From Welwitschia mirabilis (lineage: Eukaryota): 42,544 nt of DNA. The notes under the pieces are model-generated. The model did not search any database. It was not told the origin of the DNA and worked only from the letters and a program-made list of their open reading frames with translations. Position 1 is the first letter of the stretch. Each line of letters opens with the position of its first letter. Both the position numbers and the translations under genes were made by a program. The DNA lies in the NCBI GenBank assembly GCA_051453625.1, contig JBOZIK010000001.1, forward strand, positions 28,170,472 to 28,213,015, given 5' to 3'. This document shows, piece by piece, positions 1 through 41,907 of this stretch.

Positions 1-742
1 AATAAAAGTCTAAATCCTATTTTATCACATGATACTAATCAGTTTTAAAAAACTTTATTGATAGGTAGTGTCTTAATAACCACTCTATTTTAATTAATAT
101 TAAATCCTAAACCAAAAATCATAAATACTAAATTACAACTTTCTTAAGGTTTAAATACAAAAAACAATAGAAAAGTCAAAAATCACAACTAAAAAGTGCA
201 GAAAAATTCTTCATTGAAATGTACAGCTAATTTTACTTGAAGTAATATGCCTTTTGCTTAATTGTAAAGGCTTCACAAACCTTTGAAATGTTTTCATTTT
301 ACTTCTTCTCAATTTATTTACCTCCTCTCTAAGATAAATTTCAAGCACAATGACATCTAAAACCTCTCCTTGTTAAGTATTCTTCTAGATGTTACATTAG
401 TATATTAAGTATCCTTTCAATGTCTTTATCAAATTATCACATCAGTATTACTTTTCTTAAAGTATTATCATTTTAACTAATGGTTTATTTTTCTCTTTTA
501 TAAGTACAAGTTTCCATGATGATTCTATAGACATCTAATCAGTCCTACATGAAATACTGACATCTAATACTAGCTCTTAGCTAAGTTTGTTTCTATAAAA
601 TAAAATATTAGCATCTTATAATATCTTCAAGACCTCTTTTTAATTCAAAACTATAATAGTGGTGTTTTATACTATCTAGAAGGTCTTCTACTAACTTATA
701 ATTAAAACACTATTGTTACTTACAAACTATGGTACCTTTTAT

Positions 743-930
743 GGACTCAAAATTAGAACACAGATATCTTATTAATGATAAGAATTTCTAGTGACTTAAG
801 ATTAGAACATTGACATCTTATATTGATTGTAAAATCTTTTTGTAACTTAGGATTAGAAGATTATAATTCTACATTAACTACATGACTTTCTATTGATTTA
901 TGATTAAAGTATTGTATTCTTGCTTAGATT
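743..930 (+). repeat. Degenerate ~50-bp tandem repeat, about 4 units
   Basis: Units begin GACTCAAAATTAGAAC, GACTTAAGATTAGAAC, AACTTAGGATTAGAAG and GATTTATGATTAAAG at about 50-bp spacing. Confidence 0.55.
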
Positions 931-1173
931 ACTTTTTTAACTTTATAACTAAAAATAGGTTTCTTATAAAATGTTCTAGTTTATCAAAAGTCATCATAGA
1001 GCATTGGGTATATATATAAAAAATAAATAATGGAGTTAGGGTAATTGTCTAAATAAAAAATTGATGCCTTGCATACCAAAGTCAATGCTATATTGAATGT
1101 AGAATTTATGGACAATAAGGATTACATCATATAGAAACAAGACTAATATTCATACAAGGGTGGTCTTCATTAC

Positions 1174-1851
1174 AATGCATATGTTACTGACTATCATGAT
1201 GCTATTAATCTTTTATAGGACTTCTTATCAAGGAAAACTTTCTACCTCATGAAGCTATCATTATTTCCTCTTATGATGCTATTTTTTTATTTGAGGATTC
1301 ATGTCTCTAGTAGATTTAAAGACATGGTTACTTGCACTAGTCGCTTACTCTTAATATTGACAATCTTGATAATGCACATTTCTATTTAGTACAAGAATTT
1401 TTCTTTGAATGACTCTACCTAATTTTAAAAAAAAATTTGAAATGGGAATTTCTCTTATAGCATATTTTTGTAAGATTTACTCTACATCTGAAGAGGATAT
1501 TTGTAAAACCTTTGAGATGATAAATAAGTTTAGTGTTGATGCTATAAAAAAAACTTCATAGCCTGATTTAGAATGTCAGGCTAAGGGATTGAATGATATT
1601 GATTGTAAGGGTCCTACATATTTTGAAAATATAATGGAAAAGGGTGAATTATATTTAAATATCAAAATTATTGATAAGGATTATGAGGATGCTATACATG
1701 ATTAAGGTGAGCTTGATAAGAGAATGTTTATAAATGATGATGATTCTCTACTTTCTATAGTTAGTATTTTAGCTAGTAGTGCTATTGCATCAGGAGTAAA
1801 GAGAAAATATAAAGCTATTGCATCACCTACAAAACTATAACAAACCCCTTT
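1174..1851 (+). pseudogene. RBR: Retinoblastoma-related protein gene fragment (N-terminal region, before pocket A), with stops and frameshifts
   Basis: Manual translation: NAYVTDYH...LRIHVSSRFKDMVTCTSRLLLILTILIMHISI*YKNFSLNDST*F...LIAYFCKIYSTSEEDI...DKDYEDAIHD*GELDKRMFINDDDSLL...SGVKRKYKAIASPTK. Recalled plant RBR: [78 protein letters not shown]. Weaker similarity may extend up to ~1040. Confidence 0.9.
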
Positions 1852-2799
1852 ATACAAGGCCTTCCTTTGATATCACATGTAATAAAGGCTTCACTTCTGA
1901 TAGTGTAAGGATACCATCTCCAACACTAGTAACTGAAGCAATGTGTTAGTCTTGTTGAGTTATGTCTCAAGCATAATAGGCTTATACACCCACCTTAGGA
2001 CTTTAGTCTAATAACAGAGTTATAGATATTAAAGTTATTTGGAAATTCTCTTAAATTTTTATCAGAAATATTACCATTATCAAATTTTCTATAGTTATCA
2101 CCTACAAATGTTCAAATAGAGGGCAATCAATTCTTATCTTGTGTTGATATCTAAATCAATATAGACAACATCCCCTATTTTGCATTAATGCATAAACTCT
2201 ATGCCTTTTTCTCCCTAATTTTCCAATTCTCATCTTGTTAACTTCCACTTATTACATCTTCTCTCGCTAAATTACTATAAAATAAGATTTAATCCTTAAA
2301 ATTGATTAGAAGGATATAAGTAACATCCTAGCTAAGCTAATTTTGATGGACCTAAATCACTCCTTAATTTTCTTTCCTTTTTAAAGGAAGCTCTCTAAGC
2401 TCTGAGATGCTACTTCTATTATGTTACTCTGAAAACTTAAATGCCTTCTCAACCTTGAAATTAAGAGATGCCATTCAGACTGTTGAATCCTTCACTGATG
2501 ATATTATGCACTAGACTAATAAAATGTTTAAAGTTAGCATGCATAGCATGATTGTTTAAGCTTCCTCCTAGATTTCCATAAGTAAGATCATGTTTTTATG
2601 AGGGATATAATGGTAAATGGTGATAAGCTTCTAGAGAATCTAGCAAATAGTTGTACTTGAGGAGGCATCTAAGGCACTATAGATGAAATATTTTATGTTT
2701 TATTTTTCTCCTTCTAAACTACCCAAAAGGCACTTCAAATGCATCATGTCTAGATGCTATCTCACTATTCCAAGAATAATTACCTAGATAATTGAAATA

Positions 2800-3171
2800 A
2801 GTTGGTTGCATCTATAGTAATTTAATCTTTGTTTTCCTTGTGTTCTTTGTGGAATGCCAACCTTCTATCCTCCCTATTATTGAAGGGCTTCACTGTCCTT
2901 CGTAATTTCAATCATAATAACTTCATATTGGCACTTCCTTCTTTTATATTAGCTAATGCTATTTTTGAAGAATGGTTATCCTATGAGTTATCTTTAAATG
3001 GCAATAATTTTTTAGAAAAAATTCCTATCTCTCTATTTACCTCATGTGTGAAACTTTAGAGCTTGAAACTAAACATTAGCTCAAATCTTTTGTTAAGAAC
3101 TATTATCATAACAAATTATAGTTCCTTGAAGTTTCTAAATTCCTCATGCAATGGAATGAAAGGACTAATAC
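2800..3171 (+). pseudogene. RPK2/TOAD2-type LRR receptor-like kinase fragment (island domain plus following LRRs), copy 1, cut by a gap
   Basis: ORFs 2829-3059 and 3063 onward are the same frame, split by one TAG: TVLRNFNHNNFILALPSF..LSYELSLNGNNFLEKIPISLFTSCVKL*SLKLNISSNLL..SSLKFLNSSCNGMKGLI. Recalled RPK2: [72 protein letters not shown]. Confidence 0.75.
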
Positions 3172-3271
3172 NNNNNNNNNNNNNNNNNNNNNNNNNNNNN
3201 NNNNNNNNNNNNNNNNNNNNNNNNNNNNNNNNNNNNNNNNNNNNNNNNNNNNNNNNNNNNNNNNNNNNNNN

Positions 3272-3708
3272 GATGTTCATATTGAGAGAGAAAACATCCC
3301 CTATTTTGCATCAAGGCATAAATGTTGTGCCTTTTTCTCTCTTGTTTTTTGATTCTCATCTTATTAACATTCATCTCTTACATCTACTCTAGCTAAGATT
3401 ACTATAAAATAATCTTTGATCCCTAAAATTGATCAAAAGGGTATAAGCAGCATCTTAGCTAAACTAATTTTGATGGATTTAAATCACTCCTTAATTTTGA
3501 GGGTATAAGTAGCATCTTGAAAACATTCTTGTCTTTCTATTTACCTCATGCATGAAACTTTAAAGATTGAGAGTAAATATCAGCTTAAATCTTTTATTAA
3601 GCACTGTTCTTATAAATTATAGTTCCTTGAATTTTCTAGATGCCTCATGCAATGGAATGAAAGGACTAATACCCACGTTCCTAAGCAACATGTCCTTCTT
3701 AGAAAGTA
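3272..3708 (+). repeat. Diverged, internally deleted duplicate of ~2150-3171
   Basis: 3292-3498 resembles 2167-2371 and 3519-3672 resembles 3016-3171, with many substitutions. About 640 bp of intervening sequence is missing from this copy. Confidence 0.85.
3519..3708 (+). pseudogene. RPK2-type LRR-RLK fragment, copy 2
   Basis: ENILVFLFTSCMKL*RLRVNISLNLLLSTVLINYSSLNFLDASCNGMKGLIPTFLSNMSFLE, including a plant LRR motif (LxxLDxSxNxxxGxIP). Confidence 0.75.
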
Positions 3709-3796
3709 ATACTATAAAGCTTGATTCTTAAGCTTGATTCTACTATATAGTAAAATCATGAAAACCATATTTAAATTATAAACATGCGTTTAATAC

Positions 3797-4620
3797 TTCT
3801 TTTGCATTTGATGTTTTCTCCATTTCCTCAAGGATCTGTAGTAATTCATTTCTTAATTCTAGATTAATTTGTGGTTATTCATGACCACTAAAATCATCTA
3901 GATTAAAAAGTTTCCATGGGCTATGCTTTTGAGTTTTAGTCAAATCATAATTATAAAGAACATAATATTTGTTCCAAGAACTATCTAGAATTTATCTGAC
4001 GCTAGTTTTATGGATGTGATTCTATCATCATACCAAGCTCCCTCACTTTTATCATCTTTCCATCATACTTTGCACTTGTCTATAATAGTCTAATTTATAT
4101 TTAATGAAGCTTTGTATCAGTTTTTCTCAATAATAAAATCAACATTGTATGTCAATTTAGGCAAATTTAATTTAAAGGTTTTTCCATAAACATTAGAACT
4201 AGGATGAATAAACCTGAGGGCTAATTTGTAAAAAGTTTCTCTAAATTCTAGAATAGTTGAATACTCAAGACTAATGACATAAAAAAGTTACACAAATCTG
4301 ATATTGCCTTTAATGGACTTCCAAGGTCCACATTCTTGAAATGGGCTTCTTAACAAAAACTCTTCATGCCCCTAATAACATGACACTCTTAGTAGACATT
4401 ATAGAAAATCTAGAAATAATAAACATTATTAGGTCTTACAACTAGAAAAGCAATTTACAAATACCTATCTTACATATGCAACTTCCTCTTCAAGTTGTGA
4501 AATATAGTAGATTTCAAATTTAGCTTCATAAAGCATAAGACATAACTATCTTTCTACTGTTTGTTTGCTAATGTTCTTATGAGTCAATATCTTAGAAATA
4601 CTATTTGGGATTCCCTTCTT
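3797..4620 (-). pseudogene. BRWD/PHIP-type bromodomain and WD40 protein gene fragment (region upstream of the bromodomain), two exons with a retained intron
   Basis: Minus strand: *LCLMLYEAKFEIYYISQLEEEVAYVR* | intron | GHEEFLLRSPFQECGPWKSIKGNIRFV*..LRFIHPSSNVYGKTFKLNLPKLTYNVDFIIEKN*Y..DKCKV*WKDD..GAWYDDRI..DSSWNK..KHSPWKLF. Recalled plant BRWD: WLMLS..RYIPQLGDEVAYLRQGHQE..GPW.SLKGNIRAVE..FKLTLPE..DFLVERTRY..DKCKVWW..HSPWELF. GT at 4464-4463, AG at 4373-4372, next GT at 3796-3795. Confidence 0.9.
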
Positions 4621-5408
4621 ATCAGTGTAATCTCTAAAATCCCAAACAACCTATTCATTAGATTCTGAATTGCAACTATTCCATTTTAAAGGCTTCTATT
4701 AACGAAATTAAAGCCTATGATAATTGAATGAACTTATTTCCATAACTCCTCCAAATGGATTACTTCTCTCATGCTAATTTACTAAGAAAAAAGTGATCTT
4801 CATTCTTCTATATTTCTTAGAATCTATAAGCTAGACCGTTTCATTCATTAAATGAATAAGAAGTTAAAGTTCATAATATATTTTAATAATTATAAATCTT
4901 TTCTCAAAGACATAATTCATGCATTCACTGGCTGACTATTGCACCCCATTTTTATGAACACTATGAGATCCTTCTCTAAATATAATAATAGTGAGATAAT
5001 TACTTGAATCTTTTGAAAGTGACACCATTTCAGAAAGGCACTCTTGGGACACTGAAAGTTACTATTTTTGCATGTTATGAGATGCATGTATTATGAACCA
5101 AAGTCCAGAATGAGAACTTGATTCATTTCATTAATCACATTATTTATGATGCCTACTCTTCGCATCATTGTTCTATAGCATTGAAGTAGAAAGAAAGAAG
5201 CATCCTAATATTTCACAAAGTTTTAAATATTTTCAGAACTCATACTTATAGATGTAGAGTTAAGTCTCTTCTATCTTTAGCATTTTCACTGGTAATGGAG
5301 AGAATATTAGTCTAATATTAATAAAATTAATGGTTCTTATATCACACCACTAAATATCTAGGAAAAAGCCTCTTATTCCTCAAAAGGAGTATTTAATGAA
5401 AGGATTGA

Positions 5409-6508
5409 TGTTATGTCACCAGCTTATATGTATTTGATAGGGTATTATAAGTTGTTTTGGAGGTAAATTAAGAGATAAATGCTTAATTCTTATGATAATT
5501 AAGAACTGAGATGAAAAGAATAAAAACATGCAGTTTCTAGATAAATTACAAGCATTTCATATAGATATGAATAAATATTATTTTTGGATAATTATTCCTG
5601 CAAAAAATGAGTGATCAGTCTAAATGAAGATTGATAAAAGCCTGTCATCCACCTCATCGTCTGAACGTCACTAGCAGATAACATCTCAAACAGGGTAATA
5701 CCAAGTTCACATGCAGATCACAAGCAGTTAAACTAGAAGCTAAATAGATATCTAATTGTCAGTCTTCGATGTCTTCTCCTTTTTCTGAATGACTAGTAGG
5801 ATGACACTATCCTCTTATACTTCTACTGAATGTTTTCCTTAGTTGTCGCTACTTCTTTATGACTTTACTTTGCATGTTAGCTAGGGTTTCTCCTCTACTT
5901 CTTTGTCAGTTTCTTTTCCTTTTCTGTCTATAAATAAAGGTCTCCCCCTTGATTCCTAATTATTTTTGATAGTACATGACATTCTCATAATAGAAGATCT
6001 TAGGACCAACGAACCATCTTGTAATCTAGAGAGATGGTACCTTGGTATTGGGTTGCGTATCCTCCATTAAGGAATGACTACTTTGTAATACAAATGTATT
6101 TTATGCTTCTTAATATGAATTATCTTTTTTGTTCAATATATATAGGAATCTCTCCCTCATAGTTTATGTTGTTTAAGATTTATGACAGGTTTCTTCTATT
6201 ATATAGATTATGAGGATAGCCTTTATCAAGAGTGAGCTTGATTAGATTAGGTGCATTATTATTTCTTTTCATAGATTAGTTTTGCATTGTTATTTCAATT
6301 ACATGCATTGCAATTTATTTTAGTAGATTAGGGTTACATATTTCTATCTTGAAACCAACTCTATTATTTCTATACTATTGGCCTTCGATGGAATTATGAT
6401 ATTTAGATCACTCCCAACTATACTAGCATGTTATGTTTGTGTATCTTATTTATAATTAACAAGAATTAGATCAAGGCATGAAACATTGCATAAATATGCA
6501 CCGCAACA
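5409..6508 (+). mobile_element. Solo LTR of Athila type (1100 bp) with perfect 5-bp TSD
   Basis: TG...CA termini (TGTTATGTCACC...GCACCGCAACA) flanked by ATTGA at 5404-5408 and 6509-6513. Reverse complement is closely similar to the LTR at 33085-34182. No PBS or PPT adjacent. Confidence 0.92.
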
Positions 6509-6843
6509 ATTGACAGCCACATTTATAAGTAACATGTCTCTCTAAAGCAAAAGGAGTATTTAATAAATGCCTTAAGTAAATGAAGTTTCTAGGCATACTA
6601 AATGAACATCATTCATTGCAAATTTTAAATTCATTCAACCTATAATCTATAAGAAAAAATAATTGTTATAGATTTTATTCAACATTCATAGAATCTAGAT
6701 GAAAAATGGAAAGGAAGACTTCACAAATATAATAAATTTTAGAATTACATTAAATCTGGGAGATCTACAACACAACTAGGAAGAAATTATAAATCCTTAC
6801 CTCAGTCTAATGCTTTTCCAGCATAGACAAATAAGATCTATAA

Positions 6844-7165
6844 AAAATCTTCTCAGAGGTTGTGATAATAATAAATGGAAATGGAATGTCAAGAGGTTTT
6901 AGATTTGTCAACTTTAAAATACATAAAGATGTTCGAGCTGCAATACAGAGATTTAATAACTCTCAGCTTTATTCAAAGATATTATTTATATGAAGATCAC
7001 AAAATAAAGAAGAGCATATACAAATCCTGAAAAGAGCAATTGTAGATGCCCGAGTGTATGTAAAAAATCTTGAGGATGCTATGAATGAAGATGTATTACA
7101 TAAGCTATTCAGATGTAATGACACATAACATCTGCTATGATAATGTATCATGAGAAAAGAGTAAA
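6844..7165 (+). pseudogene. Poly(A)-binding protein (PABP) gene fragment, RRM3 to start of RRM4
   Basis: KIFSEVVIIINGNGMSRGFRFVNFKIHKDVRAAIQRFNNSQLYSKILFI*RSQNKEEHIQILKRAIVDARVYVKNLEDAMNEDVLHKLF..(frameshift)ITSAMIM. Contains RNP1-like RGF(G)FVNF, the PABP motif LYVGRAQKK (TGA at 6991-6993 replaces Gly) and RNP2 VYVKNL. Confidence 0.85.
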
Positions 7166-7290
7166 CAAATACATAGGATAGTGTTGATTAATCCTAATTG
7201 TATACTTTATTTTTTGAAAATGTAATGTTGCACTTTCCTCGATTACACACATGGCTTAATTGTATTTTTATATCTTTTACAATATTTATC

Positions 7291-7546
7291 CTATTAAATG
7301 CCTTAAAAATTCCTCACCTTTTGTAGTTTTATTTGGTTAAGAGCCTTAAAAGACTAGAAACATTAAAGGCATTGATATATAAATGCCTTAACAACATTTT
7401 ACATTAGCTTTTAAGGTGTTTCTTTAAAAATATCTTAATAAAACTATTTTTTTCCAAAACATTTATTTAAATGAATACCTTAAAATGCTCTATAATTAAT
7501 TTATTTATTTAAATAAATACCTTAAAAGCATCTATTTCTTATAGTG
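7291..7546. repeat. CACTA subterminal repeat array plus right TIR
   Basis: AAATGCCTTAA-like motif at 7296, 7341, 7381, 7475 and 7516, inverted at ~7363 and ~7409; TIR at 7535-7546. Confidence 0.8.
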
Positions 7547-10500
7547 AAAGCTTTCGGTTTTCTACTTCAAGTGGATCATCAAATAAGGTATGCTCATAAA
7601 GCATTAATTATCTTTCTTCAAGTGGACAATGTTGTCAAAATTAGACTAGGTTTAATTTCTCCTTTAATATTCAACTCATCACCTAAATCCTTTTCAGTAG
7701 CATCAAATACTCTAATGGTAAACTTTTTATTTCCTAAGTGACATTCCATCATTCTAGTTCTAGTATCGATAATGCATTGAGCTATTGCACAAAAAGCTCC
7801 ACCTAGAAGTAATGGAGAACCTTCTTTATACTTAAATTTAATCACAATAACATATATAGGATAGAATGCTTCTTTAATTTAAATTACCAAATCTTTAATT
7901 ACTTCTAAATATTTCTTTAATGATGTATCTACTCATTCTAAGACAATCTATGTAGGTTTAATTCTACCTTCTAAACCAAGTTATTGACAAATATGTGAGT
8001 GCATAATATTAACACTTGATACTATATTAATTAGTGCTTTTTTTATATTTTATTTGCTTCTNNNNNNNNNNNNNNNNNNNNNNNNNNNNNNNNNNNNNNN
8101 NNNNNNNNNNNNNNNNNNNNNNNNNNNNNNNNNNNNNNNNNNNNNNNNNNNNNNNNNNNNNNNNNNNNNNNNNNNNNNNNNNNNNNNNNNNNNNNNNNNN
8201 NNNNNNNNNNNNNNNNNNNNNNNNNNNNNNNNNNNNNNNNNNNNNNNNNNNNNNNNNNNNNNNNNNNNNNNNNNNNNNNNNNNNNNNNNNNNNNNNNNNN
8301 NNNNNNNNNNNNNNNNNNNNNNNNNNNNNNNNNNNNNNNNNNNNNNNNNNNNNNNNNNNNNNNNNNNNNNNNNNNNNNNNNNNNNNNNNNNNNNNNNNNN
8401 NNNNNNNNNNNNNNNNNNNNNNNNNNNNNNNNNNNNNNNNNNNNNNNNNNNNNNNNNNNNNNNNNNNNNNNNNNNNNNNNNNNNNNNNNNNNNNNNNNNN
8501 NNNNNNNNNNNNNNNNNNNNNNNNNNNNNNNNNNNNNNNNNNNNNNNNNNNNNNNNNNNNNNNNNNNNNNNNNNNNNNNNNNNNNNNNNNNNNNNNNNNN
8601 NNNNNNNNNNNNNNNNNNNNNNNNNNNNNNNNNNNNNNNNNNNNNNNNNNNNNNNNNNNNNNNNNNNNNNNNNNNNNNNNNNNNNNNNNNNNNNNNNNNN
8701 NNNNNNNNNNNNNNNNNNNNNNNNNNNNNNNNNNNNNNNNNNNNNNNNNNNNNNNNNNNNNNNNNNNNATTTTTCAAAATGATAAATTCATACTTACATT
8801 TCACATTAAGGATTTAATATATTCATCAAAGGTAGGATTAGCATTTAGTCTATCAAGCCAAGAGGTAGCAGTTTTCTTACCTTTATCTTGAATAGCATTT
8901 TTCTTTAAATTATTTAAAATCGAGGGGAAAATATGGTTTTTTAAATTTTAATATCCCCTTATTCTTCATCATTTTTTTGATTTTGAGATGTTTAAGTCTC
9001 ATGAATTGTAGGTGTTATATCATTTTTACTTCCTATCACAACCTTATAGTATTTTGTTTACTTCATTAGGGTTTGGTAAAGGTTGTGTTGTAAGTAACTC
9101 TTATGATATTTAATTAGTAAGCATAGTTTATTAAATAATATTAATAAGATTTGCAATGTTTGAATTTGTTTTTTGTTGAGATTTTATTAACTCATCAATA
9201 CAGTTTTTAAGTGGAACATTTTGGTTTTGTGAGTTTGATGTTCTTACTTGAAAATTTAACTTGCTTAGTTGGAAGTTTGAGTTATTTGTCTAAAAATTAG
9301 CATTTTCAAGTCTAATTTCTAAATGGTTAAAAATCTAGTTGATTTTCTTGAAATTTCTTAAATTTCTTTTCAAAATATTAAGAATTTGGTTATCCATTCA
9401 TCCTAGCTTAAAATTAATTTGATTTTGATTTTGATTTTGATTTTTAAAGTTTGAATATTTTTTATTAAATGCACACACCTCTTCATAAATATTTTCTTTG
9501 TAAATAGGTAATAAAGGACAATCTTTTATTACATGGTAGTTGTCTTCACATAAATTACAAGTTAGAATCACAAACACACTCTTTTTAATTGCTACCTTTG
9601 TATCTAAGATCATTTGAGTGATTTTTTTTTTTTTAAAGTATTGTAGTGAAATACTTAACAATATTTCTTCATTCTTGTTCTATTTTTACTTCTTCTTTTT
9701 CTTTTTTAACTTTTTTAAGATCTTTTATATTTTATCCTACTATATGATTAGGTATTAGTTTAGACCAAGTTTAACTTTTCACAATTTCTTTCCATAATCC
9801 CCATGTATTTTCTAAAATGAGATTTATCAAATTTCCTCTACATAAAAAATCTACAAGTTATTAGGTTTGGCTATTAAGTTTACTATAGAAATAATCTATA
9901 AATTCTGCTTGAGTGAAAGCATCTATAGGGTTATAATGTATGGTAGTAAAAAATCGCTCATAATTAAAGGCATAATCTTTATTAGGTTGTTGTTAAAAAT
10001 TCATTACTTCTTTATTTCTTTTTCTTATGGTTGTTTTACTTATAAATCTCTTTATATATGCATCTTTAACTTAGTTTAATGTTTTTAAAATTTTATGTAG
10101 AATAGTTCTTAACTATAGTTTAGCTTTTCCTTTTAGAGTAATGATAAAAATAACTATGTAAGTACAATCATTAATTCATTTTTTACCATTTCTGAAGGTA
10201 AGTACTAATTATTTGATATCAGCTATATGTCGAAGGGGATCTTCATCATTTTCTTCATTAAAAATAAGATAACATTTCAATTTTCTAACTCAATATCATC
10301 ACTAGGAGGTAAGTTAAAAGGGTTTCAAATTTTACATTTCTTATTTGCTATGAGTTATTTAAGGGTAACATTAGCATTCAAATTTATGGGAGTAGTAGAG
10401 GTTCTAATAATAATAGGAGGATTAGACGAAGCAACCTATTTTTATTTTTGTAATGAATTCAATATTGTGATAAAACAACTTTCTTCTAAACTATATTATA

Positions 10501-11114
10501 ATTTTTTTTAATTGGGAAAATCAGAGTCATAAATAATAAATTCAAAAAAAATATTTTTGCTCAACTCTTGAAATATTTTGCATACTTAGGATGTGTGTAC
10601 CTAGGTTAAGTTTTTAATCAACCAAGCCTTCTCATTTTTTTTAATTAATAGTCATTGTCTCTAATATTTCATCTTTTACTAGAATTTATCATAACTCAAC
10701 ATGGTTAGTTCTATTTTAAGTTCATAATCTTTATGATCATTTAAATGATTTACCTTGATGATAGCACATAAAAAAAATCTAAAAACAAGAAATGTAGAAA
10801 AACAGAATCATAAAATAACATAGAATAAAAATAGCTAATCATCTATTAAGTCATTGGACGATAGAGGGAATAATAAGAAAATCTTAGTTCTTAAGAAAAA
10901 TAAAAAACCTAAGTCTCATAAGCTATCAATATTGTGTGTCATATAGATGACTAGGAGAATGACAAGAAATTTATTTTAAAAGGCAAAACAAAAACCACAA
11001 AAAGAAAAATCTACATTTTCTATTATAAGAATCTAATACTATTGTATAAAATACTTGAACTAAAATCCAAAGAACTTACATTAGAAATGATAATCCTTAA
11101 ACTCTAAGTATTCT

Positions 11115-11132
11115 TCCTTGATAATGATGCCA
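11115..11132 (-). promoter_or_regulatory. Primer-binding site (tRNA-Asp type) of element A
   Basis: Minus strand TGGCATCATTATCAAGGA versus Athila consensus TGGCGCCGTTGCCGGGGA; all 7 differences are C>T or G>A. It lies 3 nt from the LTR end. Confidence 0.8.
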
Positions 11133-11135
11133 AGA

Positions 11136-12384
11136 TGTTATGATGTGGTTTAGTGCAAATGTTATGTCCTCAAATAAATACTGTAAATCATAAATATATA
11201 TAGATTTACATAACATAATATACTAATATAAATGGTAGTAACCCAAACGTCATATTCGTATTGACAGTGTAGGTGATAAGAAAGGGAATTAATTTCATAA
11301 ACAAAATACTATATCCTCAAAGTATAATAAAATAAAAGTGCAAATTAACATACTATGCAAATGAAATGCAAGATTAAACTAAATGCAACTTTCATTCGAT
11401 TAGTAAATCAACCTATCATAGAGATTGACCTTGTATAACCTAGATCAATCAAAAAAAGCCATCACTAGATCAAAGCAAATCTAAGATATCAGATACATTG
11501 AATAGAATATGAAAATAATGCAAAGTTAATATAGAAAATGAAATTAAATATACCTAAACTAATAATATTAACCTTAACAATGGTTACCCTCATGATCTAT
11601 ATCACTAAAATGCTGTCACAAAATTAGAGGCAATATAAATCATAAGGAAGATGCATAAAATAAAATATATGAAAAGAAAAATAGAGTTCTAATTAAAATA
11701 AAATCAACATCCACGTTATAAAGTAGCAACTCCTCAATGAAGGATGCTTAGCCGAACATCAAATAAGACATCTCTCTGTAATAATAATGGATGAACCTCC
11801 AATGTTCGATCTCTTTCCACGTGAATTTTTAATGAAAATAAAAATAAAAGCAAAGTCAAATGTAGAGGAGGTATTTATTACAAAATAGCTTTTAAAATCA
11901 AAAAATATTAATAGACACATGAATAACCTAATAACCACACAAGGAATTGTGAGATAAATGGCTAAAGTTTGGTGAAGTTTGATAAAGAATTTATCTCAGA
12001 TTTCATCCTACTAGTTGTTTGGACATCATAAGATATGGTGCCACCTCATAAGAGTTTCACATTAGTTGTCAAATTGATCTAGTTAGCATCCTCCTTAGCT
12101 TAAGTTTTATTGGCATCCATACATTCATCTAGATAATGAGGTAAACAATAGGGTTTTATAAAGTATTCCATGTATCACATTAGTCTTTTTGACTGTAGGA
12201 GTATTGTTTCATATAGAAAATATTATAAATTACCTTAAATGATATCAAATGTAATAAATATTACATGTTTCATGATATTTGGCTTATCTCTCCATTATCA
12301 TAAAAACTTAGCATAAACCTATATGATGTTCTACAAAACTACTCAATATATTCTATCAAGTATATACAATTTGGTAGTGCAACA
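11136..12384 (-). repeat. 5' LTR of element A
   Basis: TGTTATG...GTGCAACA termini; homologous along its length to 15656-16924 and 28433-29601. Confidence 0.85.
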
Positions 12385-13756: not shown

Positions 13757-15655
13757 TACTAGGAGATTCAAAAAGGTTTGAGTGTTAATTTTTCATTATT
13801 TATTCTAGCTCCCATTTAGCTTTATTAAGACTATGATTAATCCACTTTATCCTCACTTGATGGATCTTTCTGCTTTGTAAATTGATAGTTCTTTGGCTCA
13901 ACACTACTTCCAAATTTTCTATAGTTGAATAATATGATTCCATCTAATTATGAAACCAATTTAACACATGAGAAAGATTTGCAATATGCTTTTTTAACAT
14001 ACTTACATGGAATACATCATGCATGTGCTATAATCTAGAAGGTAGAGCAAGATTATATGTAACAAGCCCAATACTTTCTAATATTCCAAATGGTCTAATG
14101 AATTGTGAGCTAATTTTAATCTCTTAACTCCTCTCATTACTAATTTCATTAGTGACAATTTAAGAAATATATGATCGTCTATTTTAACTTAAAATAACTT
14201 TTTAATGATACATATACCTTTTTTTTAATCTATTACATTTTTAGGTCTATTTCCAATTATCCTTATTTTATTTTCTATTTTTTATAAGATTTCTAGTCCT
14301 ATAACCAATCTTTCTTTAGATTCTATCCGTGAAGTAGATGCTCTACATTTTATACCATTTAGGAATTCAAATAGAGAGATTTGAATTAAACTCTAAAAAT
14401 TATTAATATATTTATACTATACCAATGATAACTGCTCTTCTTGACTCTACGGATGATTTAAAATATATGCTTTAAAAAGATCTTTCACAATTTAATTAAC
14501 TCTTTTTGCATTTGTTTGATAATGAAATGTAATGCTCATATTTAACTTGGTTCCTAAATCCATTTATTCTTATCAAAATTTAGAACTAAATGTTGATTCT
14601 TTATTAGAGATAATTACTAAAGCTACTTCATGTAACTAAACAATATTTTAAATATATACTTTAGCTATATTATTAGCATCATAAATAGATTTAACTTGAA
14701 TGAAATATGCTAACTTAGTTATTCTATCAATTATTACCATGATAGAGTCATTATCTCTTTAATTTTTTAAAAGTCATAAAATAAATGCTATGCCAACCAC
14801 ATCCCATTTATATTCTAGAATATCAAAAGAATAAAGTACTTTTTCTACATTTTTATGTTTTGGTCTAAATTATTAATAATTAAAACATATTAATATAAAT
14901 TTTTCTTTATCATTTTTCATCCTTGATCACCAAAAGTTTTGTTTTATGCTTTGATACATTTTAGTATCTTTAGAATGACCTACTATAGATGAATTATGAA
15001 ATTCAAATAGTAGCTTATGTTTAATTCCGTCTACATTAGTAAATAAAAATATTTTTTTAATCTAATTATACCATCTGAATCAATTCTAGATTTCTTTACA
15101 TCTATTGATTTTTCTAATTATTCCTTTACCATCTAATTATACCATCTAAATCAATTCTAGATTTCTCTATAGCTATTGAATCAATTTTTTATAATTCTCA
15201 TCCTCTTTTAATACCTCTAAAATAATGGTAAGAATTTAATTTTAAATTTTCATGATTATTTTAAGATAACCTCATCTACTAAGAACATATCCAACATTAT
15301 TTCCTTTACCTTCATGGTATAAAATATTTAAATTAAAATCATATAGAAATTTCATCCATCTTATTTATTTAAGGTTTAAATTTAATTAAGTAAAAATGTA
15401 TTTTAAACACTTATGATCTATTTAAACTTAAGACTTTACATTTTAGAGATAATTATTTTACAATTTTAAAGAAAAAATTATTATAGCTGATTCAAGATCA
15501 TGAATAAGATAATTTCTCTCATAAGTTTTAAATTATCTTCATCCATAAGATATTACTCTTTTATCTTATTTAAAAAATATTTTAAATCCTTCTCCGAATG
15601 CATTAGTATAAACTTAAAAGCTCTTTGAATTATTTGACATTGTTAAGACTACAGA
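13757..15655 (-). pseudogene. Tekay/Del chromovirus pol, 3' part (RNase H, integrase, chromodomain), decayed
   Basis: VLTMSNNSKSF*VYTNAFGEG (RNase H start), KISSQFIRPFGILESIGLVTYNLALP..HDVFHVSMLKK (GPF region), VRIKWINHSLNKAKWELE..NLF (chromodomain). Confidence 0.9.
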
Positions 15656-16924
15656 TGTTGTGGTACATATTTATGTAAATATTACATCCTTAAAAAATTA
15701 CTAAAAATCACCAATATACATATACATATATTACATAATATAACAAACTAATAAAGATGGAGGTGACCAAAATGTCATAATTTTATTGAAGGCATAGGTA
15801 AGAATAAAGATAATTGATTTGAAAATGAAATACTTATGTAATTTCTAAGTAGAATAATAATAATGCAAAGTAACAATGAAAATAATACACTATACAAATG
15901 AGATGCAAGTTTTATTCTAGATGCAATATCTATTTAATTACCAAATCAACCTATTATAGAGATCGGTCCTATATAATTTAGATCAATCAAGGAAAGTCAT
16001 TACTAGACTGAAACTAACCTAATCTATCAGGTGAATCAAATAAAATATAAAAATAATGCAAACTTAATCTAGAAGATGAAATGCATTATACTTAAACTAA
16101 ACATGTTAACCTTAATAAAGGTTACTCTTATGATCTATATCATAGATGAAGCTATCACAAAATCATAAGAAACATAAAGCATAATGGAAATGCACATAAC
16201 AAATGATATGAAAAGAAAAATAGAGTTCTGATTAAGTTAAATCAACATTTGTATTACAAAGTAGTAGCACCTCAATAAAGGATACGCAACCCAATACCAA
16301 GAAGTTGTCTCTTTGCAATAACAAAGGATGAATATCCTACCTTGTAGTATCCTATCATGAAAATATCTAATGTCAAATAATATAAAGTCAAATTCAAGGA
16401 TAAAAAAGATATTTATTACAAACATAGACTTTAAATACAATAAAGGCTAATAGACAAGATAAAATCCTAGTAGCTATGCAAGAAGAAAGAAGACACATGG
16501 TAGAAGTTTGATGAAGTTTGATAAAGTGTTATTTTTAGGTTTCATCCTCTTGGTTATCTAGACATCATAAGAGATGATGCCATATCATATACTATCCAAA
16601 TCAAGTACTTGATTAGATCAATAATTGTCCTAGTTAGCAGGCGTTCTTCTATTATCCATATAATTGTTTGAACGATAAAGTGGAGAATAGGCTTTATAAA
16701 GGTATTTCTTATATCAGATTAGCTTTTTTAATTATAAAGTTACTACTTCAGATAAGAATTACTTTATTTTGTCTAAATTACTATCAAATGTAATGAAGAC
16801 TGCATGTTTTTGTGATATTTGCCTTAGTTCTTCATTATCATTGAAACTCAGCATAAACCTATCTAATGCCTTGTAAAACTACTTAAAATACTATGTTAAA
16901 TACATATAATTTTGTAGTTCAATA
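15656..16924 (-). repeat. 3' LTR of element B
   Basis: TGTTGTGGTACATATTTATG...TTTGTAGTTCAATA; on the minus strand it is preceded by purine-rich AAGGCTAAGTGGAGGAGTA. Confidence 0.88.
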
Positions 16925-17579
16925 TACTCCTCCACTTAGCCTTATCAGTTCCTCACTAAATCATGTGAGTAATATGATTATAAACCAAATTGGCTAACGA
17001 AGAAATCAACTAGGGAATCATGAAATAAACTCAAAAATAATCTCAAAAATCTTATAATGTAGAATAGAAATGTCAAAAATATATAATTAGACTTTTCATA
17101 TGTGTAGTATAGGTAGTCATACTATCATTTTTATGGTCATACACACAATGGAGGGGATGACATTCTCAAAAATTATTCTTGAAAAATAGAAGCATAAAAA
17201 AAAAAAATTCTTAGAAAGATAAACATTAAAATGTAGCAGTGTTGATAGTCCCTTATTTAAATGTATAATAGATACTAAAAATTATTCATGTATATCATAA
17301 GAAAAAATCTCATCATGAAATTTAAAAAATGATATATAAAATATGTATATAATATTTCAATAATAAAAATGTACATCATGATCATACTTAGAAAACAATA
17401 TGTCTATGTAAGAAAATCATGAGTTTTCATATAATCCATGAAGGGAAGATACATAATATAATAAATCACTTTCCTTATTATGTAAAATGAATTCCCGATG
17501 CATAGTAAACTAAAGTATAGGTGGAAAAAAAGGAGGGTACTCAATATCTAGAAGAACACAATGATCAAATGATGTCATA

Positions 17580-18640
17580 ATGAAGCATGTCGTCTCATTC
17601 CCTTATACTCTAAGTACCTCTAATAGGTCAACTGTCACACCATGCTCAATACATAATATGTGCTGTCACACATCAGTCAGCAGCTCCTTAATGTGATAAA
17701 CTATCCTCTCAATTGTAGACATACTCTGCTTAAGCATGATAATACCTTATTCTATCATCTCTTTAATGCTCTGTGTAGTGTCTACTAAGAGATCCTGAAT
17801 CTGCTTAATAGTGATACCAATTATAGGCTTTTGTACCTGAGGTCTCTCTTCCTCTCTTAATATCTAAATGCCCATGTCTTGTATGTAATGAACTAATGTG
17901 TAAAGATGCATGAATATCTACTTGTCCATGGGCTTAAGTATACCAAAGCCTCTAAACATAGCTGAGAGGAGGTAAGGATATCCTAGAGTCCATAATTATT
18001 ATGTATTAATCATACTCCTAGGTATTCTTTAAATAAAGTCTAATAGATCCATATGTGTCCTTCACTTGAATACTAATAGTATTTAAAAATGAGAAACTAT
18101 AGTGTAACTATCATGAAAGTAAGGGTTGATATTATGAATCAATTCTCTTGAAGAATCTAATAGGTAGATGATAATTATGTCACTAAATCTACCTACCTAT
18201 CACTAGTCAAGTTATCTGTTATGTCTAATGTTATGTCCTAAGCATATGCTTCTCTATACTACCCATTGAATGGATATATATACTCCGGATGCAACTTAGA
18301 TTAGTAATAGTAATGATGTGGCTTGGANNNNNNNNNNTGATCATATCAACTAGATGGTAATGAGCATTGAAATGCCTATTTATATGCATAGTATCTTAAA
18401 ACTCTCTAGTTTCTAAGGTGTAATATGTATCATGTGCATTTATAAGTCATTTGAGCTATAGATCTATTAGTTTATGGTCAATATCTAGCTCTAAACAACT
18501 CATGAAATTACTAAAATGTCTCTTTACTTGAATAGAAGCTATCCGAATAAAAAGAGATCAAGCCTATGAGGTGGTACTAATGGGTTTATTTCCTACTCTA
18601 CTACCTTGGCCTCATCCTTAATCTATCTTTCTCATTGAGT
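17580..18640 (-). pseudogene. Decayed Athila accessory ('env-like'/plant transposon protein) ORF
   Basis: YTLETREF*DTM...LIHNINPYFHDSYTIVSHF*ILLVFK*RTHMDLLDFI...LGYPYLLSAMFRGFGI resembles the recalled pattern YxxLVREFYAN..NLxPxxHxS..IDVGxxI..LPFPSLITxLCxxxGV. It lies between pol and the 3' LTR. Confidence 0.6.
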
Positions 18641-20511
18641 ACATGACCTAATAAATCGTAAATGAAAAATGCATGACATAAGATCAAGTGGAAATAGTTA
18701 AAATGTATCTTGTAAAAGCTTTAAATGACCCAAAGATTACTTTTTATGTGTAAAAATCATAAAAATATGTTCTGTTCCCTCATCTTCTAAGAGAATCAAT
18801 ATGTTTGACATTGCCTAGTTATGTATAGAAAAAGTTAAAACATTAAAAACAGATAGGCCTCACATAAGGTTAAAAATGAAAAAGCTCAAATTAAAAATCT
18901 AATCTAGTAGAATCATAGAGTTCATTGTAATAATCAGTTTATTATAAAGATGCACTACATTTTTATTTACATCTTTCAAGAAAATAAGGTTTAAAGTTAA
19001 AAAACTAATTATACCTTGTAAAATGCATAATTCAAGATAGCTCACAATATATGTAATGAAAATTAGATCTATAAGTTCCAATTCAAAGAGCATAAAAAAC
19101 TAAATGACATACATGAAAACTACATAACAAAAGTCTCAAAAATGGGAGAAAAAATAAAAAATAATAAGGGAGAGAAAAACATGCCTCATTTTGATAAATT
19201 CATTTCAAACTCATAATTTAAGATGCTAATCTCACAAGGGTAAGTTTCATAACATCGATAACCACTAATGTGATGATTTTCTCTTAAATAAATAATAAAA
19301 ACAACTTATAAATAAAGAAAAATAAAGAAAAAGAATCATGAACTTAGATTTATTGCACTATTATTTTGTCATATCATCGGCATGACAGCCCTAGGGAAAC
19401 TCTCAAAAAAATCTCAACTATTGTTTATCATGTTCTCTGGATGACTTGGTAAATGATAGCACTTTGAAGAGATTCATAAAAATAAAAATATTAGTTGAAC
19501 AAGTTAGACTTAGATGTTAGTGTGAACGTATTAGACTTTATTAGAAAACTTAGAAAATAGGGAATGATAAAGAATCATGATAAATGAAGATAGAAAATGA
19601 GAAAATCTTAAAAGAATCAAAAGATAGGATGATGAAAATGCACTAAGTAGGATAAATCCTAATATAGAAAACTAAACAAACATGTGTAAATAGAAAAATG
19701 ATCATAAAAATATGTAGACATCTAAAAAGAGTCAAAGGAATCTCATAAAAAATCATAAAGAAAATCATTTTAAGTATAAGAGATAATCATGACAAAACAA
19801 ATTGCTAAAAGAAAATTAACTCTGATTAATAAAATAAATTAAGTGAAAATAAAAATAATAACAAGAAACCTACTAAATGATAAGGCCCTAAAAATAATGA
19901 TGAAAATGTAAAAAATAACTTTAAAATGATAAATTAATTAATTAAAAAATACAATAAAAATAAATACTAGGACCATGAAGAAGATAGTGTATCTACCCTT
20001 AATTCTTACCTAGCAAACCCTCTCAGAAGACATCAAAAAGATATCTATGTAAAGATGCATAACAAAATGTATCAACTCCATAAAGTTTCACTCAAAAAGG
20101 TATTGATTATAATGACACTAAAGATCAAGTGCTCAAAACAATGAATGATAAGATTAAATACTACTAAGAAATTGACTCACCTACTTACAACATAAAACAC
20201 ACTCAAATCCTAAAAACTAAAATGATCATATAGACATACTAAGATTGTAGAAAATGAGTAATACCTCTGATAATACAAGGAACATCAGTGATTCCATAGC
20301 CTCAAAGTTTTATTTCTACTTTTTATGATTAAGGAAGTGAAACCATAGACAGAGAAGTAAATACTAGTGAATCATGATCAACAAATCCATTAGTGAAGTT
20401 TCCATAGCTACCCATACTACCAAAGGTTCCTTTTAAAACAATTTACCATAGTATGGTAGGACATCATCATATATCATGTATTTTAGCAGAGATACCATAG
20501 ATCATGGTCAT

Positions 20512-20514
<3 letters not shown>

Positions 20515-20572
<58 letters not shown>

Positions 20573-21403
20573 NNNNNNNNNNNNNNNNNNNNNNNNNNNN
20601 NNNNNNNNNNNNNNNNNNNNNNNNNNNNNNNNNNNNNNNNNNNNNNNNNNNNNNNNNNNNNNNNNNNNNNNNNNNNNNNNNNNNNNNNNNNNNNNNNNNN
20701 NNNNNNNNNNNNNNNNNNNNNNNNNNNNNNNNNNNNNNNNNNNNNNNNNNNNNNNNNNNNNNNNNNNNNNNNNNNNNNNNNNNNNNNNNNNNNNNNNNNN
20801 NNNNNNNNNNNNNNNNNNNNNNNNNNNNNNNNNNNNNNNNNNNNNNNNNNNNNNNNNNNNNNNNNNNNNNNNNNNNNNNNNNNNNNNNNNNNNNNNNNNN
20901 NNNNNNNNNNNNNNNNNNNNNNNNNNNNNNNNNNNNNNNNNNNNNNNNNNNNNNNNNNNNNNNNNNNNNNNNNNNNNNNNNNNNNNNNNNNNNNNNNNNN
21001 NNNNNNNNNNNNNNNNNNNNNNNNNNNNNNNNNNNNNNNNNNNNNNNNNNNNNNNNNNNNNNNNNNNNNNNNNNNNNNNNNNNNNNNNNNNNNNNNNNNN
21101 NNNNNNNNNNNNNNNNNNNNNNNNNNNNNNNNNNNNNNNNNNNNNNNNNNNNNNNNNNNNNNNNNNNNNNNNNNNNNNNNNNNNNNNNNNNNNNNNNNNN
21201 NNNNNNNNNNNNNNNNNNNNNNNNNNNNNNNNNNNNNNNNNNNNNNNNNNNNNNNNNNNNNNNNNNNNNNNNNNNNNNNNNNNNNNNNNNNNNNNNNNNN
21301 NNNNNNNNNNNNNNNNNNNNNNNNNNNNNNNNNNNNNNNNNNNNNNNNNNNNNNNNNNNNNNNNNNNNNNNNNNNNNNNNNNNNNNNNNNNNNNNNNNNN
21401 NNN

Positions 21404-21465
<62 letters not shown>

Positions 21466-21471
21466 TCTCTC
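20515..21471. repeat. (CT)n/(AG)n microsatellite spanning an assembly gap
   Basis: Pure CT runs at 20515-20572 and 21404-21460 on either side of Ns. Confidence 0.95.
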
Positions 21472-21804
21472 CCCCCTTCTTTTTTTCACATAAATAAGTC
21501 CCACATAATTACATACTTAAAAAGACAAAGATGAAAAAGTGATATGAAAGACAAAAAAAACATACTTAAATAACTAAAGATCTTAAACTATTGAAAAAAG
21601 CATAAGAATCAATGCATCTTCTTTCAAAGTAGATTTTATATACATGTAAATGTCTTATAGTTAAATGAATCTAATCTTGTCATTGTAAAAATGCCCATGT
21701 ACAAATACTAATCATGGAAACTTCCTAAAGCAAATACATTAGTCAAGTTAAAGATGATTAACTGATATCATAACATTTATCAAAGGAATAGATTATGAAA
21801 GAAT

Positions 21805-27800: not shown

Positions 27801-28000
27801 TGCTTTGAAAAAATCAAATTCAAAAATAGTAAATGCAGAAACATATTCTTGCTTAATTCTTGGAGTATTTTGCATACTTGGGGTGTTCATACCTTAGATT
27901 AGTTCATAGTCAATCAAACCTTCTCAGATGTTTTCTTAATCAATAGTTACTCTCTCTAATACTTTATCTTTTTAATAGAGTTTACCATATCCCAATATGC
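21805..28000 (-). pseudogene. Decayed gag-pol of element B
   Basis: ORF 24227-24502 contains IEIFMNNFSIYG (decayed FMDDF RT motif) and VLGHYIS. Also HATTRYIMTKKDSSVRLIR (RNase H) and the KINGQRLKLY integrase tail. Many stops. Confidence 0.9.
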
Positions 28001-28411
28001 TTAGTTATATTTTTGTAAATATCATCTTTATGGTCATATAAATGATGCATCTAGATGATATAATACATAATAAACATAAAAATAAAAAAAATAGAAAAAT
28101 AGAATTACTAATTAAGATAGAATAAAAAATGACAATTATCCTCTGAGTTGTCTGGATGATAGAGGGGATGATAAAAAATCCTAATTATTATAAAAATGAA
28201 AAATCCTAAATTTTACAGGCCATCATTACTACATGTCATTTCGATAACAAGAGGGATGACAAGGCATTAGTTTTAGAATAAAAGTCAAAAAATGTGGAAA
28301 TAAAAACCTATGTTTTCACTATAAAGATATAGTGCTTATATAGAAAAATACCTAAACCAAAATGCAAACTACTTATTTGATCAATGATAGTTCTCAAATT
28401 CTAAGCAGCCT

Positions 28412-28429
28412 TCCTCAACAATAGTTCCA
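28412..28429 (-). promoter_or_regulatory. PBS (tRNA-Asp type) of element B
   Basis: Minus strand TGGAACTATTGTTGAGGA, 3 nt from the LTR end, at the same position as in A. Confidence 0.7.
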
Positions 28430-28432
28430 AGA

Positions 28433-29601
28433 TGTTGTAGTGCATATTTATGTAAATGTTACATCCTTAAACAATTCCTAAAATCATCAAAATATATATA
28501 TTACAGAACATAACATACTAATATAGATGGGAGTAATCCAAATGTCATTATTTCATTTAAGGCAGAGGCAAGAAAAAAGAGAACTAATTTCAAACAAAAC
28601 AGTTATGCAATTTCTAAGTAGAACAATAATAATACAAATAACATACTATGTAAATGAGATGCAAGTTCTATTCTAAATGCAATATCTATTCAATTACCAA
28701 GTCAACCTATCATGGAAATTGATCTTATATAATCTATATCAATTTAGAAAAGTCATTACCAGATCAATTTCAATATAATCTATCAAGTGCATCAAAGAGA
28801 ATATGAAAATGATGCAAATTTAATCTATAATATAAAATGCAATGCACCTAAAATAATAATGTCAACCTTAATAAAGTTTGTTCGTTTGATCTATATCATA
28901 GATAAAGTTGTTACAGAATCATAAATAAATAAATTACAAGGGAGATACATATAATAAATGATATAATAAAAAAATAGAGTTTTGATTAAATCGAATCAAC
29001 ATCCATGTTATAAAGCAGTAGCATCTTAATAAAGGATACATAGTGCAACATCAAGAAAGACATATTTTTACAATAACAAGGGATGGTTCTCCTACCCTTA
29101 AGTCTTCTATCATAAGAATTTTTAGTATCAAAGAAGATAAAGTGAAAGTCAAGGGTGAAGAAGGTATTTAATACAAAAATAGACTCTAAATATAATAAAC
29201 ACTAATAGATGCAAATATTCATGCAATAAATTGTAAGGCATGTAGATGAAGTTTAATGAAGTATTATCTTTAGGTGGCATCTTGATAGTCATTTAGATGT
29301 TATAAGTTACAATTCCACATCATACAAAATCCAATGTGGTTCTTTTATCATCCATCTAATCATCCAAATAATAAGGTGGATGACGGGCATTGTAAAGTAT
29401 TTCTTGTATCATATGAGCCTCTTTGATTACAAGGTTGCTGCTTTAGATAGGAAGAATTGTAATTTTCCTACTTGTTAAATGTAATGAATATTGCATTTTG
29501 TGATATTTGCATTATCATTAAAACTTAGCATAAACCTGTCTAATGTCCTAGAAAACTACTTAGAATACCTTATCAAATATATACAATTTGGCAGCATAAT
29601 A
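28433..29601 (-). repeat. 5' LTR of element B
   Basis: TGTTGTAGTGCATATTTATG...GGCAGCATAATA; aligns with 15656-16924 with substitutions and indels. Confidence 0.88.
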
Positions 29602-41700: not shown

Positions 41701-41812
41701 AATTAAAGGAATTTCAAAATCTTACATAACTTTACTATTTTAATTTGTTTCTATTTCAAAATTTATTAAACCTTCATTAATGTTTTTAGCAATTAACAGT
41801 CGTTTTCTCTAG

Positions 41813-41907
41813 TATTTCGGTGTGTATTTATGCAATAGTTCACGTTTCAATTTCAATCCTGTTAATTATCAATAAGATGCAAAATACAACACGCTAGTAT
41901 AGACGGA
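41813..41907 (-). repeat. End of another Athila-type LTR, cut by gap
   Basis: TATTTCGGTGTGTATTTATGCAAT...CAACACGCTAGTATAG resembles the start of 33085 and the reverse complement of the 6508 end. Confidence 0.7.

Follow-up and report, generated by a model that had tools for sequence, protein, structure and literature searches.

We analysed a stretch of 42,544 nucleotides of Welwitschia mirabilis DNA (contig JBOZIK010000001.1 of assembly GCA_051453625.1, positions 28,170,472 to 28,213,015 of the forward strand), hereafter the window, in which positions 1 to 7546 end in the terminus of a CACTA-type DNA transposon. The terminus and its insertion into a Ty3/gypsy-type retrotransposon are strongly supported. 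Behind the terminus lie decayed pieces of unrelated host genes, namely a retinoblastoma-related (RBR) gene, a plant leucine-rich repeat (LRR) receptor gene, and a poly(A)-binding protein (PABP) gene; a single non-autonomous Pack-type CACTA element carrying all of them is likely but unproven, with a probability that we put at roughly 0.55. The RBR piece descends from spliced RNA, as judged by intron positions common to many plant RBR genes. Positions 1 to 8061 were compared, at a likeness of at least 85%, with the contigs of three public read runs and the raw reads of a fourth. X1, X3, and X7 are labels of public read runs, and exact single-copy contigs in X1 have a depth of 5 to 7.5.

The CACTA terminus and its insertion site

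The right end of the element is the terminal inverted repeat (TIR) CACTATAAGAAA, located on the minus strand at 7535 to 7546. It is the sole exact match in the window, and its boundary coincides to the base with a break in homology and with a pile-up of contig ends at 7546/7547, which confirms the CACTA-type right TIR proposed in a preliminary description of this DNA. En/Spm-like TIRs are 12 to 13 bp long and begin with CACTA. Those of Arabidopsis CACTA elements are described as beginning with CACTACAA (PMC8903248). When up to two mismatches are allowed, the pattern has 24 matches in the window versus 17.0 ± 3.8 expected, a count that 5 of 100 shuffles attain; the loose pattern is not enriched, and the TIR by itself is thus weak evidence. 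The terminus is strong because three independent results converge on it: the subterminal repeats, the homology break, and the pile-up of contig ends.

The motif AWRCCTTAA has 11 matches in the window versus 3.84 expected, a count reached in none of 100 shuffles, and 5 of the 11 lie within 6567 to 7525, all on the plus strand. In addition, a 23-nucleotide unit occurs twice in direct and once in inverted orientation at 7407 to 7529; 30 shuffles gave 0.4 on average. The subterminal repeats of the preliminary description are therefore real, and direct and inverted repeats within a few hundred bp of the end are characteristic of the CACTA superfamily. The narrower form ATRCCTTAA has only five matches in the window, all on the plus strand between 6567 and 7525; these include an outlying copy (..AATAAATGCCTTAAG..; 6557 to 6577, plus strand) to the left of the PABP piece, and one contig of the public reads joins 7437 back to 6558. 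A 20-nucleotide direct repeat, CAAAAGGAGTATTTAAT(G/A)AA, is found at 5381 to 5400 and 6548 to 6567 with 95% identity; its copies would have stood about 60 bp apart before a solo long terminal repeat (LTR) was inserted, and the second runs into the outlying subterminal motif.

The terminus is shared by many copies. Of the X1 contigs, 84 stop at 7546 and 63 at 7547 (147 in total), and in X3 the corresponding counts are 83 and 71 (154 in total). The contigs ending at these positions run on for a median of 61 to 95 letters into unlike flanks (consensus agreement, 0.40); many copies with the same end base and differing neighbours indicate a transposon terminus. The X1 depth is 3918 in the bin 7264 to 7532 versus 24 to 38 in the bins from 6726 to 7263, and comparison with the single-copy depth indicates a family of several hundred copies. 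In X3, 55 contigs leave the window sequence leftward at 7274, toward moderately consistent other sequence (agreement, 0.59), indicating that the family has only 7274 to 7546 in common with this copy. Depth, divergence point, and repeat units thus delimit a terminal region at 7274 to 7546 that carries the direct and inverted subterminal repeats. The members of the family are alike at their termini and unlike and less repeated inside, as is characteristic of Pack-TYPE elements.

Several further candidates near this end were considered. A terminal-deletion remnant of about 270 bp was rejected, since retroelement sequence does not resume left of 7274. The sister consensus left of 7274, TTAATAAACTTAG, has 92 matches in the window at up to three mismatches versus 86.5 expected and is uninformative. 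On the plus strand of 1 to 7546, no convincing match to a left TIR was found; the best matches have two mismatches and lie at 1833 (inside the RBR piece) and 6645. A short element with ATCTATAAGAAA at 6645 as its boundary can be dismissed, given these two mismatches and the paralog contigs that run across the position.

The terminus abuts the interior of a Ty3/gypsy-type element on its protease side (copy A; 7547 to 8061, minus strand), the target of the insertion, which was recognized by homology to copies B and C in the window. Copy A is 70% identical to 25355 to 25895 from 7547 onward (copy B) and 69% identical to 39019 to 39506 from 7561 onward (copy C), and copies B and C align with each other straight past the insertion point (37550 to 41123 versus 23889 to 27573). 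In a three-way alignment, TAGTG and AAAGCTTT stand on the two sides of the break, and the uninterrupted copy B has CAAAAGCTTTG at this place. The AAA at 7547 to 7549 may be the right copy of a 3-bp target site duplication made at the CACTA insertion (copy B has CAAAAG at this site, and the left flank lies outside the window). Copy Y, on the minus strand, holds RVT_1, RT_RNaseH, Integrase_H2C2, and rve in this order, which is the Ty3/gypsy arrangement, and the insertion lies in copy A at the equivalent of the region that separates protease from reverse transcriptase. Window self-comparison found no part of a retroelement pol in 1 to 7546; all visible sequence left of 7546 is therefore inside the insertion, and the inserted DNA measures at least 6.4 kb after the solo LTR is subtracted.

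The window as a whole consists mostly of nested Ty3/gypsy-type elements on the minus strand, the copies of which are only 65 to 72% identical to each other. Copy A spans 7547 to 12382, with an LTR at 11149 to 12382. An apparently full-length copy occupies 15653 to 29594, with LTRs of about 1.25 kb at 15653 to 16922 and 28430 to 29594, and a second copy begins with the LTR at 33087 and extends beyond the end of the window (33087 to 42544). Next to the left LTRs of the Ty3/gypsy-type copies stands a purine-rich tract that is the reverse complement of ACTCCTCCACTTAGCC. Pfam misses even the retroelement domains in those copies of the window that are richest in AT.

Host gene pieces behind the terminus

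The RBR piece is located at 1276 to 1852 on the plus strand and corresponds to about residues 204 to 395 of a 1023-residue RBR protein. An exhaustive protein search gave 69 hits at an E value of ≤0.001, 13 of them at 1e-10 or better (best, 9.2e-30); RB_A was present in 12 of the 12 RBR hits scanned, and DUF3452 and RB_B were also present in most. By TBLASTN, residues 204 to 260 map to 1276 to 1446 (frame +1) and residues 251 to 395 map to 1418 to 1852 (frame +2), without gaps; the piece has a one-base frameshift near 1418 to 1446 and in-frame stops but no introns, and no further RBR exons were found by TBLASTN elsewhere in the window. It is present at roughly 10 to 20 copies at the likeness used. 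Against the PDB the piece gave nothing at an E value of ≤10, and word-index protein searches with the RBR and LRR pieces and with a claimed BRWD piece gave no match; the word-index blanks carry little weight because the exhaustive search found RBR easily. At the 5′ edge of the piece there is a 77-bp tandem duplication (1184 to 1220 and 1261 to 1297, 70% identity), the first copy of which has retained a DYH motif, by which the RBR homology would reach further upstream.

The state of the RBR piece was judged from the intron positions of other plants. BLASTP comparison of 53 of the 69 RBR hits (those of up to 400 residues) with the full-length protein P0004 showed that 11 short hits begin their match at residues 311 to 314, after 13 to 41 unrelated pyrimidine-rich residues, and that 12 short hits end their match at residue 378 and continue with 12 to 142 unrelated residues. 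In 11 of these 12, the first unrelated residue after ...K is V (GTN), as expected of a gene caller reading from an exon into a phase-0 intron. Three more short hits break at residues 254 to 256, and at least 14 others cross 313/314 unbroken, as spliced models or transcripts would. The RBR piece is collinear and ungapped across 254 to 256 (the site of its frameshift), 313/314, and 378/379, whereas its own ends, near residues 204 and 396, are not at intron boundaries. Unbroken passage across intron positions common to many plant RBR genes indicates that the piece descends from spliced RNA, the basis being the RBR introns of other plants and not this species' own gene. Many of the short "proteins" in the public representative library (P0005 to P0069) are plant RBR exons read into introns (...K|V...), and their common break points give intron positions without genome annotation.

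Two LRR pieces are found on the plus strand. Copy 2 (3519 to 3728) is a piece of a plant LRR receptor ectodomain that matched 65 PDB sequences at an E value of ≤10; the 17 below 1e-3 are all plant LRR receptor kinases or proteins, with AT5G25930 as the best (1.5e-6) and ERL1/2, GSO1, PSKR1, BRL2, MIK2, and FLS2 also present. Copy 1 (2859 to 3170) is a weak, LRR-like piece recognized by its 24-residue periodicity; it gave only weak matches to animal LRR proteins in the PDB (best, lamprey VLR, 0.0033), nothing in Pfam, and, with an extended query, no PDB match at an E value of ≤0.01, and its 3′ part is 81 to 95% identical to copy 2. Where RPK2 had been suggested as the source, the ectodomain of a plant LRR receptor in general is retained on the evidence of copy 2, and RPK2 itself is not among the PDB matches.

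The PABP piece (6853 to 7161, plus strand) comprises the end of RRM3, the linker, and the start of RRM4. Pfam assigned it to RRM_1 at 8.9e-9, and 105 PDB sequences matched at an E value of ≤1; the best, yeast Pab1 (6r5k_D, 7.5e-22), yields an alignment that starts at the end of RRM3, covers the linker, and extends into RRM4. A fourth piece had been claimed at 3850 to 4326 on the minus strand as BRWD/PHIP-like, on a motif resemblance around CKVxWKDD...GAWYDDRI that every search left unsupported; neither the PDB, nor Pfam, nor the word-index search gave a match to it. RBR, PABP, and a plant LRR receptor thus stand from the four host gene families originally listed, and BRWD/PHIP is not supported. 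RBR, both LRR copies, and PABP are all on the plus strand, and the mixed orientation (+,+,+,-,+) of the preliminary description depends on the unsupported BRWD piece.

The composition of the window is that of strongly decayed plant DNA. Its GC content is 27%, and it contains twelve N runs; across its length the CG dinucleotide is at 0.16 of expectation, CAG at 0.46 and CTG at 0.44 (CHG about 0.45), and CCG/CGG at 0.16 to 0.21. Depletion of CG and CHG is the signature of plant-type methylation followed by deamination, here with extreme decay. Differences between the window and its paralogs in X1 are mostly transitions (A>G 227, C>T 237, G>A 192, T>C 268), with 15 to 73 transversions per class. 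A ciliate-type genetic code was considered for the abundant in-frame TAA/TAG and dropped, since the frames are short in any reading and CG and CHG are depleted. An Rfam scan of 1 to 8061 found no families, and a tandem-repeat scan of the same stretch found one trivial 13-nucleotide repeat only.

Single element or mosaic

The interior next to the PABP piece contains a solo LTR (TGTTATG...GCAACA; 5409 to 6508, plus strand), which was delimited by alignment of LTR ends and by its flanks and represents a later insertion. A perfect 5-bp duplication, ATTGA, flanks it (5404 to 5408 and 6509 to 6513), and 5424 to 6506 matches LTRs of the window in reverse (72% over 1103 nucleotides with 33087 to 34167). 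The empty site is preserved in paralog contigs of X1 and X3, which join 5409 to 6526 without the LTR and with 11 other letters between; further joins, from 5210 to 6586, occur in two contigs of X1, two of X3, and one of X7 at about 87% likeness. The later LTR insertion had been noticed before and is borne out by the duplication and the empty site. Paralog contigs of about 86% identity join 4948 to 5409 with 6526 to 6649 and 5107 to 5210 with 6586 to 6763, indicating that 4948 to 6763, the interior beside the PABP piece, is itself a repeated unit, and the X1 depth of 11 to 68 in the bins 3229 to 5380 and 6726 to 7263 equals a few sister copies. Two verified, unrelated pieces, LRR copy 2 and PABP, share a contig with the terminus. 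We favour a single element because the subterminal motif has a copy beyond the PABP piece, to its left, and sister copies share the interior around the LTR site, and because conserved ends with a variable, less repeated interior recur in the Tpn1 and Pack-CACTA elements, for which this pattern has been described (PMC5105172, PMC6379663, PMC8903248).

Several points weigh against this reading. The window does not reach the left TIR or the left target duplication. A 100-N scaffold gap at 3172 to 3271, across which continuity is assumed, lies inside a diverged duplication detected by window self-comparison (2146 to 2371 with 3272 to 3498 at 77 to 87%; 3015 to 3171 with 3519 to 3672 at 81 to 95%), so that only scaffolding links RBR and LRR copy 1 to the terminus. 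The X1 depth is about 380 over 1 to 538, 66 to 131 over 539 to 1883 (including RBR), and 4 to 43 over 2153 to 4842, a variation of about 100-fold that fits a mosaic of different repeats equally well. Most members of the family have different sequence left of 7274, and a nested insertion at that point could likewise explain this. The spliced RBR piece counts against simple genomic capture as in the soybean element Tgm-Express1, and the Pfam scan that detected no transposase family at an E value of ≤1 in six frames of 1 to 8000 has low sensitivity in decayed DNA. What remains of the earlier claim that 1 to 7546 is the cargo of one element is the terminus with gene pieces behind it; its extent is limited by the missing left end, the gap, and the change in copy number.

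With regard to the gap, the contig 1 to 3171, with RBR and LRR copy 1, could be a paralogous sister misplaced beside 3272 to 7546. The gap does lie within a pair of 77 to 95% identical segments, and 108-nucleotide copies (98% identity) at 34145 to 34252 and 34353 to 34460, on either side of another 100-N gap (34253 to 34352), show that unmerged joins occur in this assembly. The duplicated segments, however, differ too much (77 to 87% over most of their extent) to represent a double assembly of a single locus, and exact contigs in three runs support each side separately, which neither proves nor disproves the join; we regard a scaffolding artefact as very improbable. The copies flanking 34253 to 34352 look like an unmerged contig overlap, and the 100-N gaps of the assembly are therefore unreliable as distances. 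At the left edge, 1 to 538 has about 50 to 70 genomic copies at ≥85% likeness (X1 depth, 370 to 390), with all paralogs having A, not G, at 64 and 68; the stretch may be a further module of this element or belong to some other repeat.

The pieces might also be passengers of a large, once-autonomous CACTA element whose transposase genes lie left of the window, in the gap, or in a decayed state. More than 6.4 kb of interior is visible without a left end, and large elements exist, such as one described at 20.5 kb (PMC2613891). The six-frame scan, in which stops were read as X, found only RRM_1; its sensitivity is low because the retroelement protease at 7547 to 7998 was also missed, and a decayed transposase could have escaped in the same way. 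The claim that transposase is absent accordingly holds as far as there is no Pfam match in 1 to 8000, in a scan of this sensitivity and with only part of the element visible. Against a once-autonomous element stand the lack of any transposase match and the low copy number of the interior beside the terminus, which is unlike that of most family members and follows the Pack/Tpn1 pattern; we consider such an element distinctly unlikely.

A real CACTA end may instead be combined with pieces that belong to nested or adjoining DNA, either a chimeric reverse-transcribed sequence of the type of the maize LTR retrotransposon Bs1, in which a retroelement acquires several host mRNAs, or another transposon left of 7274. 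RBR is spliced at two or three conserved intron positions, and the verified pieces all lie on the plus strand, as expected if they were copied from a co-linear RNA; Bs1 is described as carrying three host gene segments (PMC13317346). Steps in copy number at about 538, about 1884 (the end of the RBR homology), and 7274, as well as the different sequence left of 7274 in most family members, would also suit nested or adjoining DNA. On the other hand, no LTR pair brackets the pieces, the sole LTR in 1 to 7546 being the solo copy with its own 5-bp duplication; the Pfam scan found no reverse-transcriptase or other retroelement domain in 1 to 7546; and a motif copy of the CACTA type lies left of the PABP piece. 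The pieces are gene-internal and have no poly(A) tails, which argues against ordinary retrocopies made by a long interspersed nuclear element, and a study in maize found, under its conditions, no intact LTR retrotransposon that had taken up pieces of two or more genes (PMC2774510). Taken together, nested or adjoining DNA appears rather unlikely as the source of the pieces.

For the single element that we prefer, the course of events may be outlined as follows. A CACTA (En/Spm-type) transposon, presumably non-autonomous, entered the Ty3/gypsy interior between protease and reverse transcriptase; its family comprises several hundred copies with only about 270 bp at the terminus in common, and of this copy the window contains the right end together with 6.4 kb or more of the interior. 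In this copy and a handful of sisters, the low-copy interior would hold PABP, a plant LRR receptor, probably RBR, and perhaps BRWD, all enclosed between one TIR pair; the solo LTR came later. Pack-CACTA elements are proposed to arise when neighbouring, terminally deleted copies are re-mobilised with the intervening chromosomal DNA (PMC6379663, PMC13317346). Simple capture of genomic gene DNA does not explain the RBR piece; uptake of the cargo most likely happened at the DNA level, from DNA that would already have held processed, spliced gene debris. Direct uptake of spliced host transcripts by the CACTA family, such as through repair of an excision gap from complementary DNA (cDNA) or RNA, seems improbable; if it occurred, the cargo would be a same-strand chain of processed pieces, and a DNA transposon would be shuffling exons through an RNA step.

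Comparison with known gene-carrying elements

CACTA elements that carry gene fragments are already known as a class from soybean, morning glory, Arabidopsis, and maize, and the decayed cargo described here is unlikely to have a coding function. It might conceivably give rise to siRNAs against RBR or PABP, in line with a suggestion in the preliminary description. The locus is of value as a cleanly dated nest, in which a Ty3/gypsy element was followed by the CACTA element and then by the solo LTR; the surrounding plant genome, with 27% GC, is heavily deaminated.

The cargo of Tpn1 elements is genomic in origin. The Tpn1 family of Ipomoea nil is described as having hundreds of copies with conserved TIRs and subterminal repeats and with interiors replaced by host sequence (PMC5105172). 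The element studied here resembles this non-autonomous, En/Spm-related family, as so described, in its conserved terminal region (7274 to 7546) and variable interior; Tpn1 elements are active and mutagenic, whereas the present copy is an old one that shows deamination and has been split by a solo LTR. Pack-CACTA elements of Arabidopsis and maize are characterized in the published accounts by CACTA-like termini, a 3-bp duplication, and common termini with differing interiors, and those of maize carry pieces of several loci (PMC6379663, PMC8903248). In contrast to the Arabidopsis elements, which measure a few kilobases and have both ends known, only one end is visible here and one cargo piece is cDNA-derived; the RBR piece does not show the intron-bearing, genomic cargo that is typical of Pack-TYPE elements.

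The host gene segments of Bs1 are without introns. As Bs1 is described, it holds its host gene pieces in one orientation and takes them up via RNA, and the pieces behind the CACTA terminus likewise have one orientation and, in the case of RBR, a spliced state. In Bs1 the pieces lie between two LTRs; here there is no LTR pair, and the adjoining terminus is of the CACTA type.

Tgm-Express1, a soybean CACTA element, is described as 5.7 kb long, with fragments of five host genes, no transposase, and donor exons and introns kept (PMC1947982). Judged by that description, the two elements are alike in combining a CACTA end with several unrelated host gene fragments packed into a few kilobases, and they differ in that the present element exceeds 6.4 kb with its left end outside the window, its cargo is heavily decayed, and its RBR piece is spliced. 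No report of spliced cargo in CACTA elements surfaced by title or abstract; there was no dedicated search, and we do not claim that such cargo is unreported. Given one spliced piece, it may be asked whether DNA transposons in genomes of this kind acquire processed gene debris, or even cDNA itself. The spliced piece is the one real departure from known CACTA cargo, because Tgm-Express1, the closest CACTA example, keeps the introns of its donor genes.

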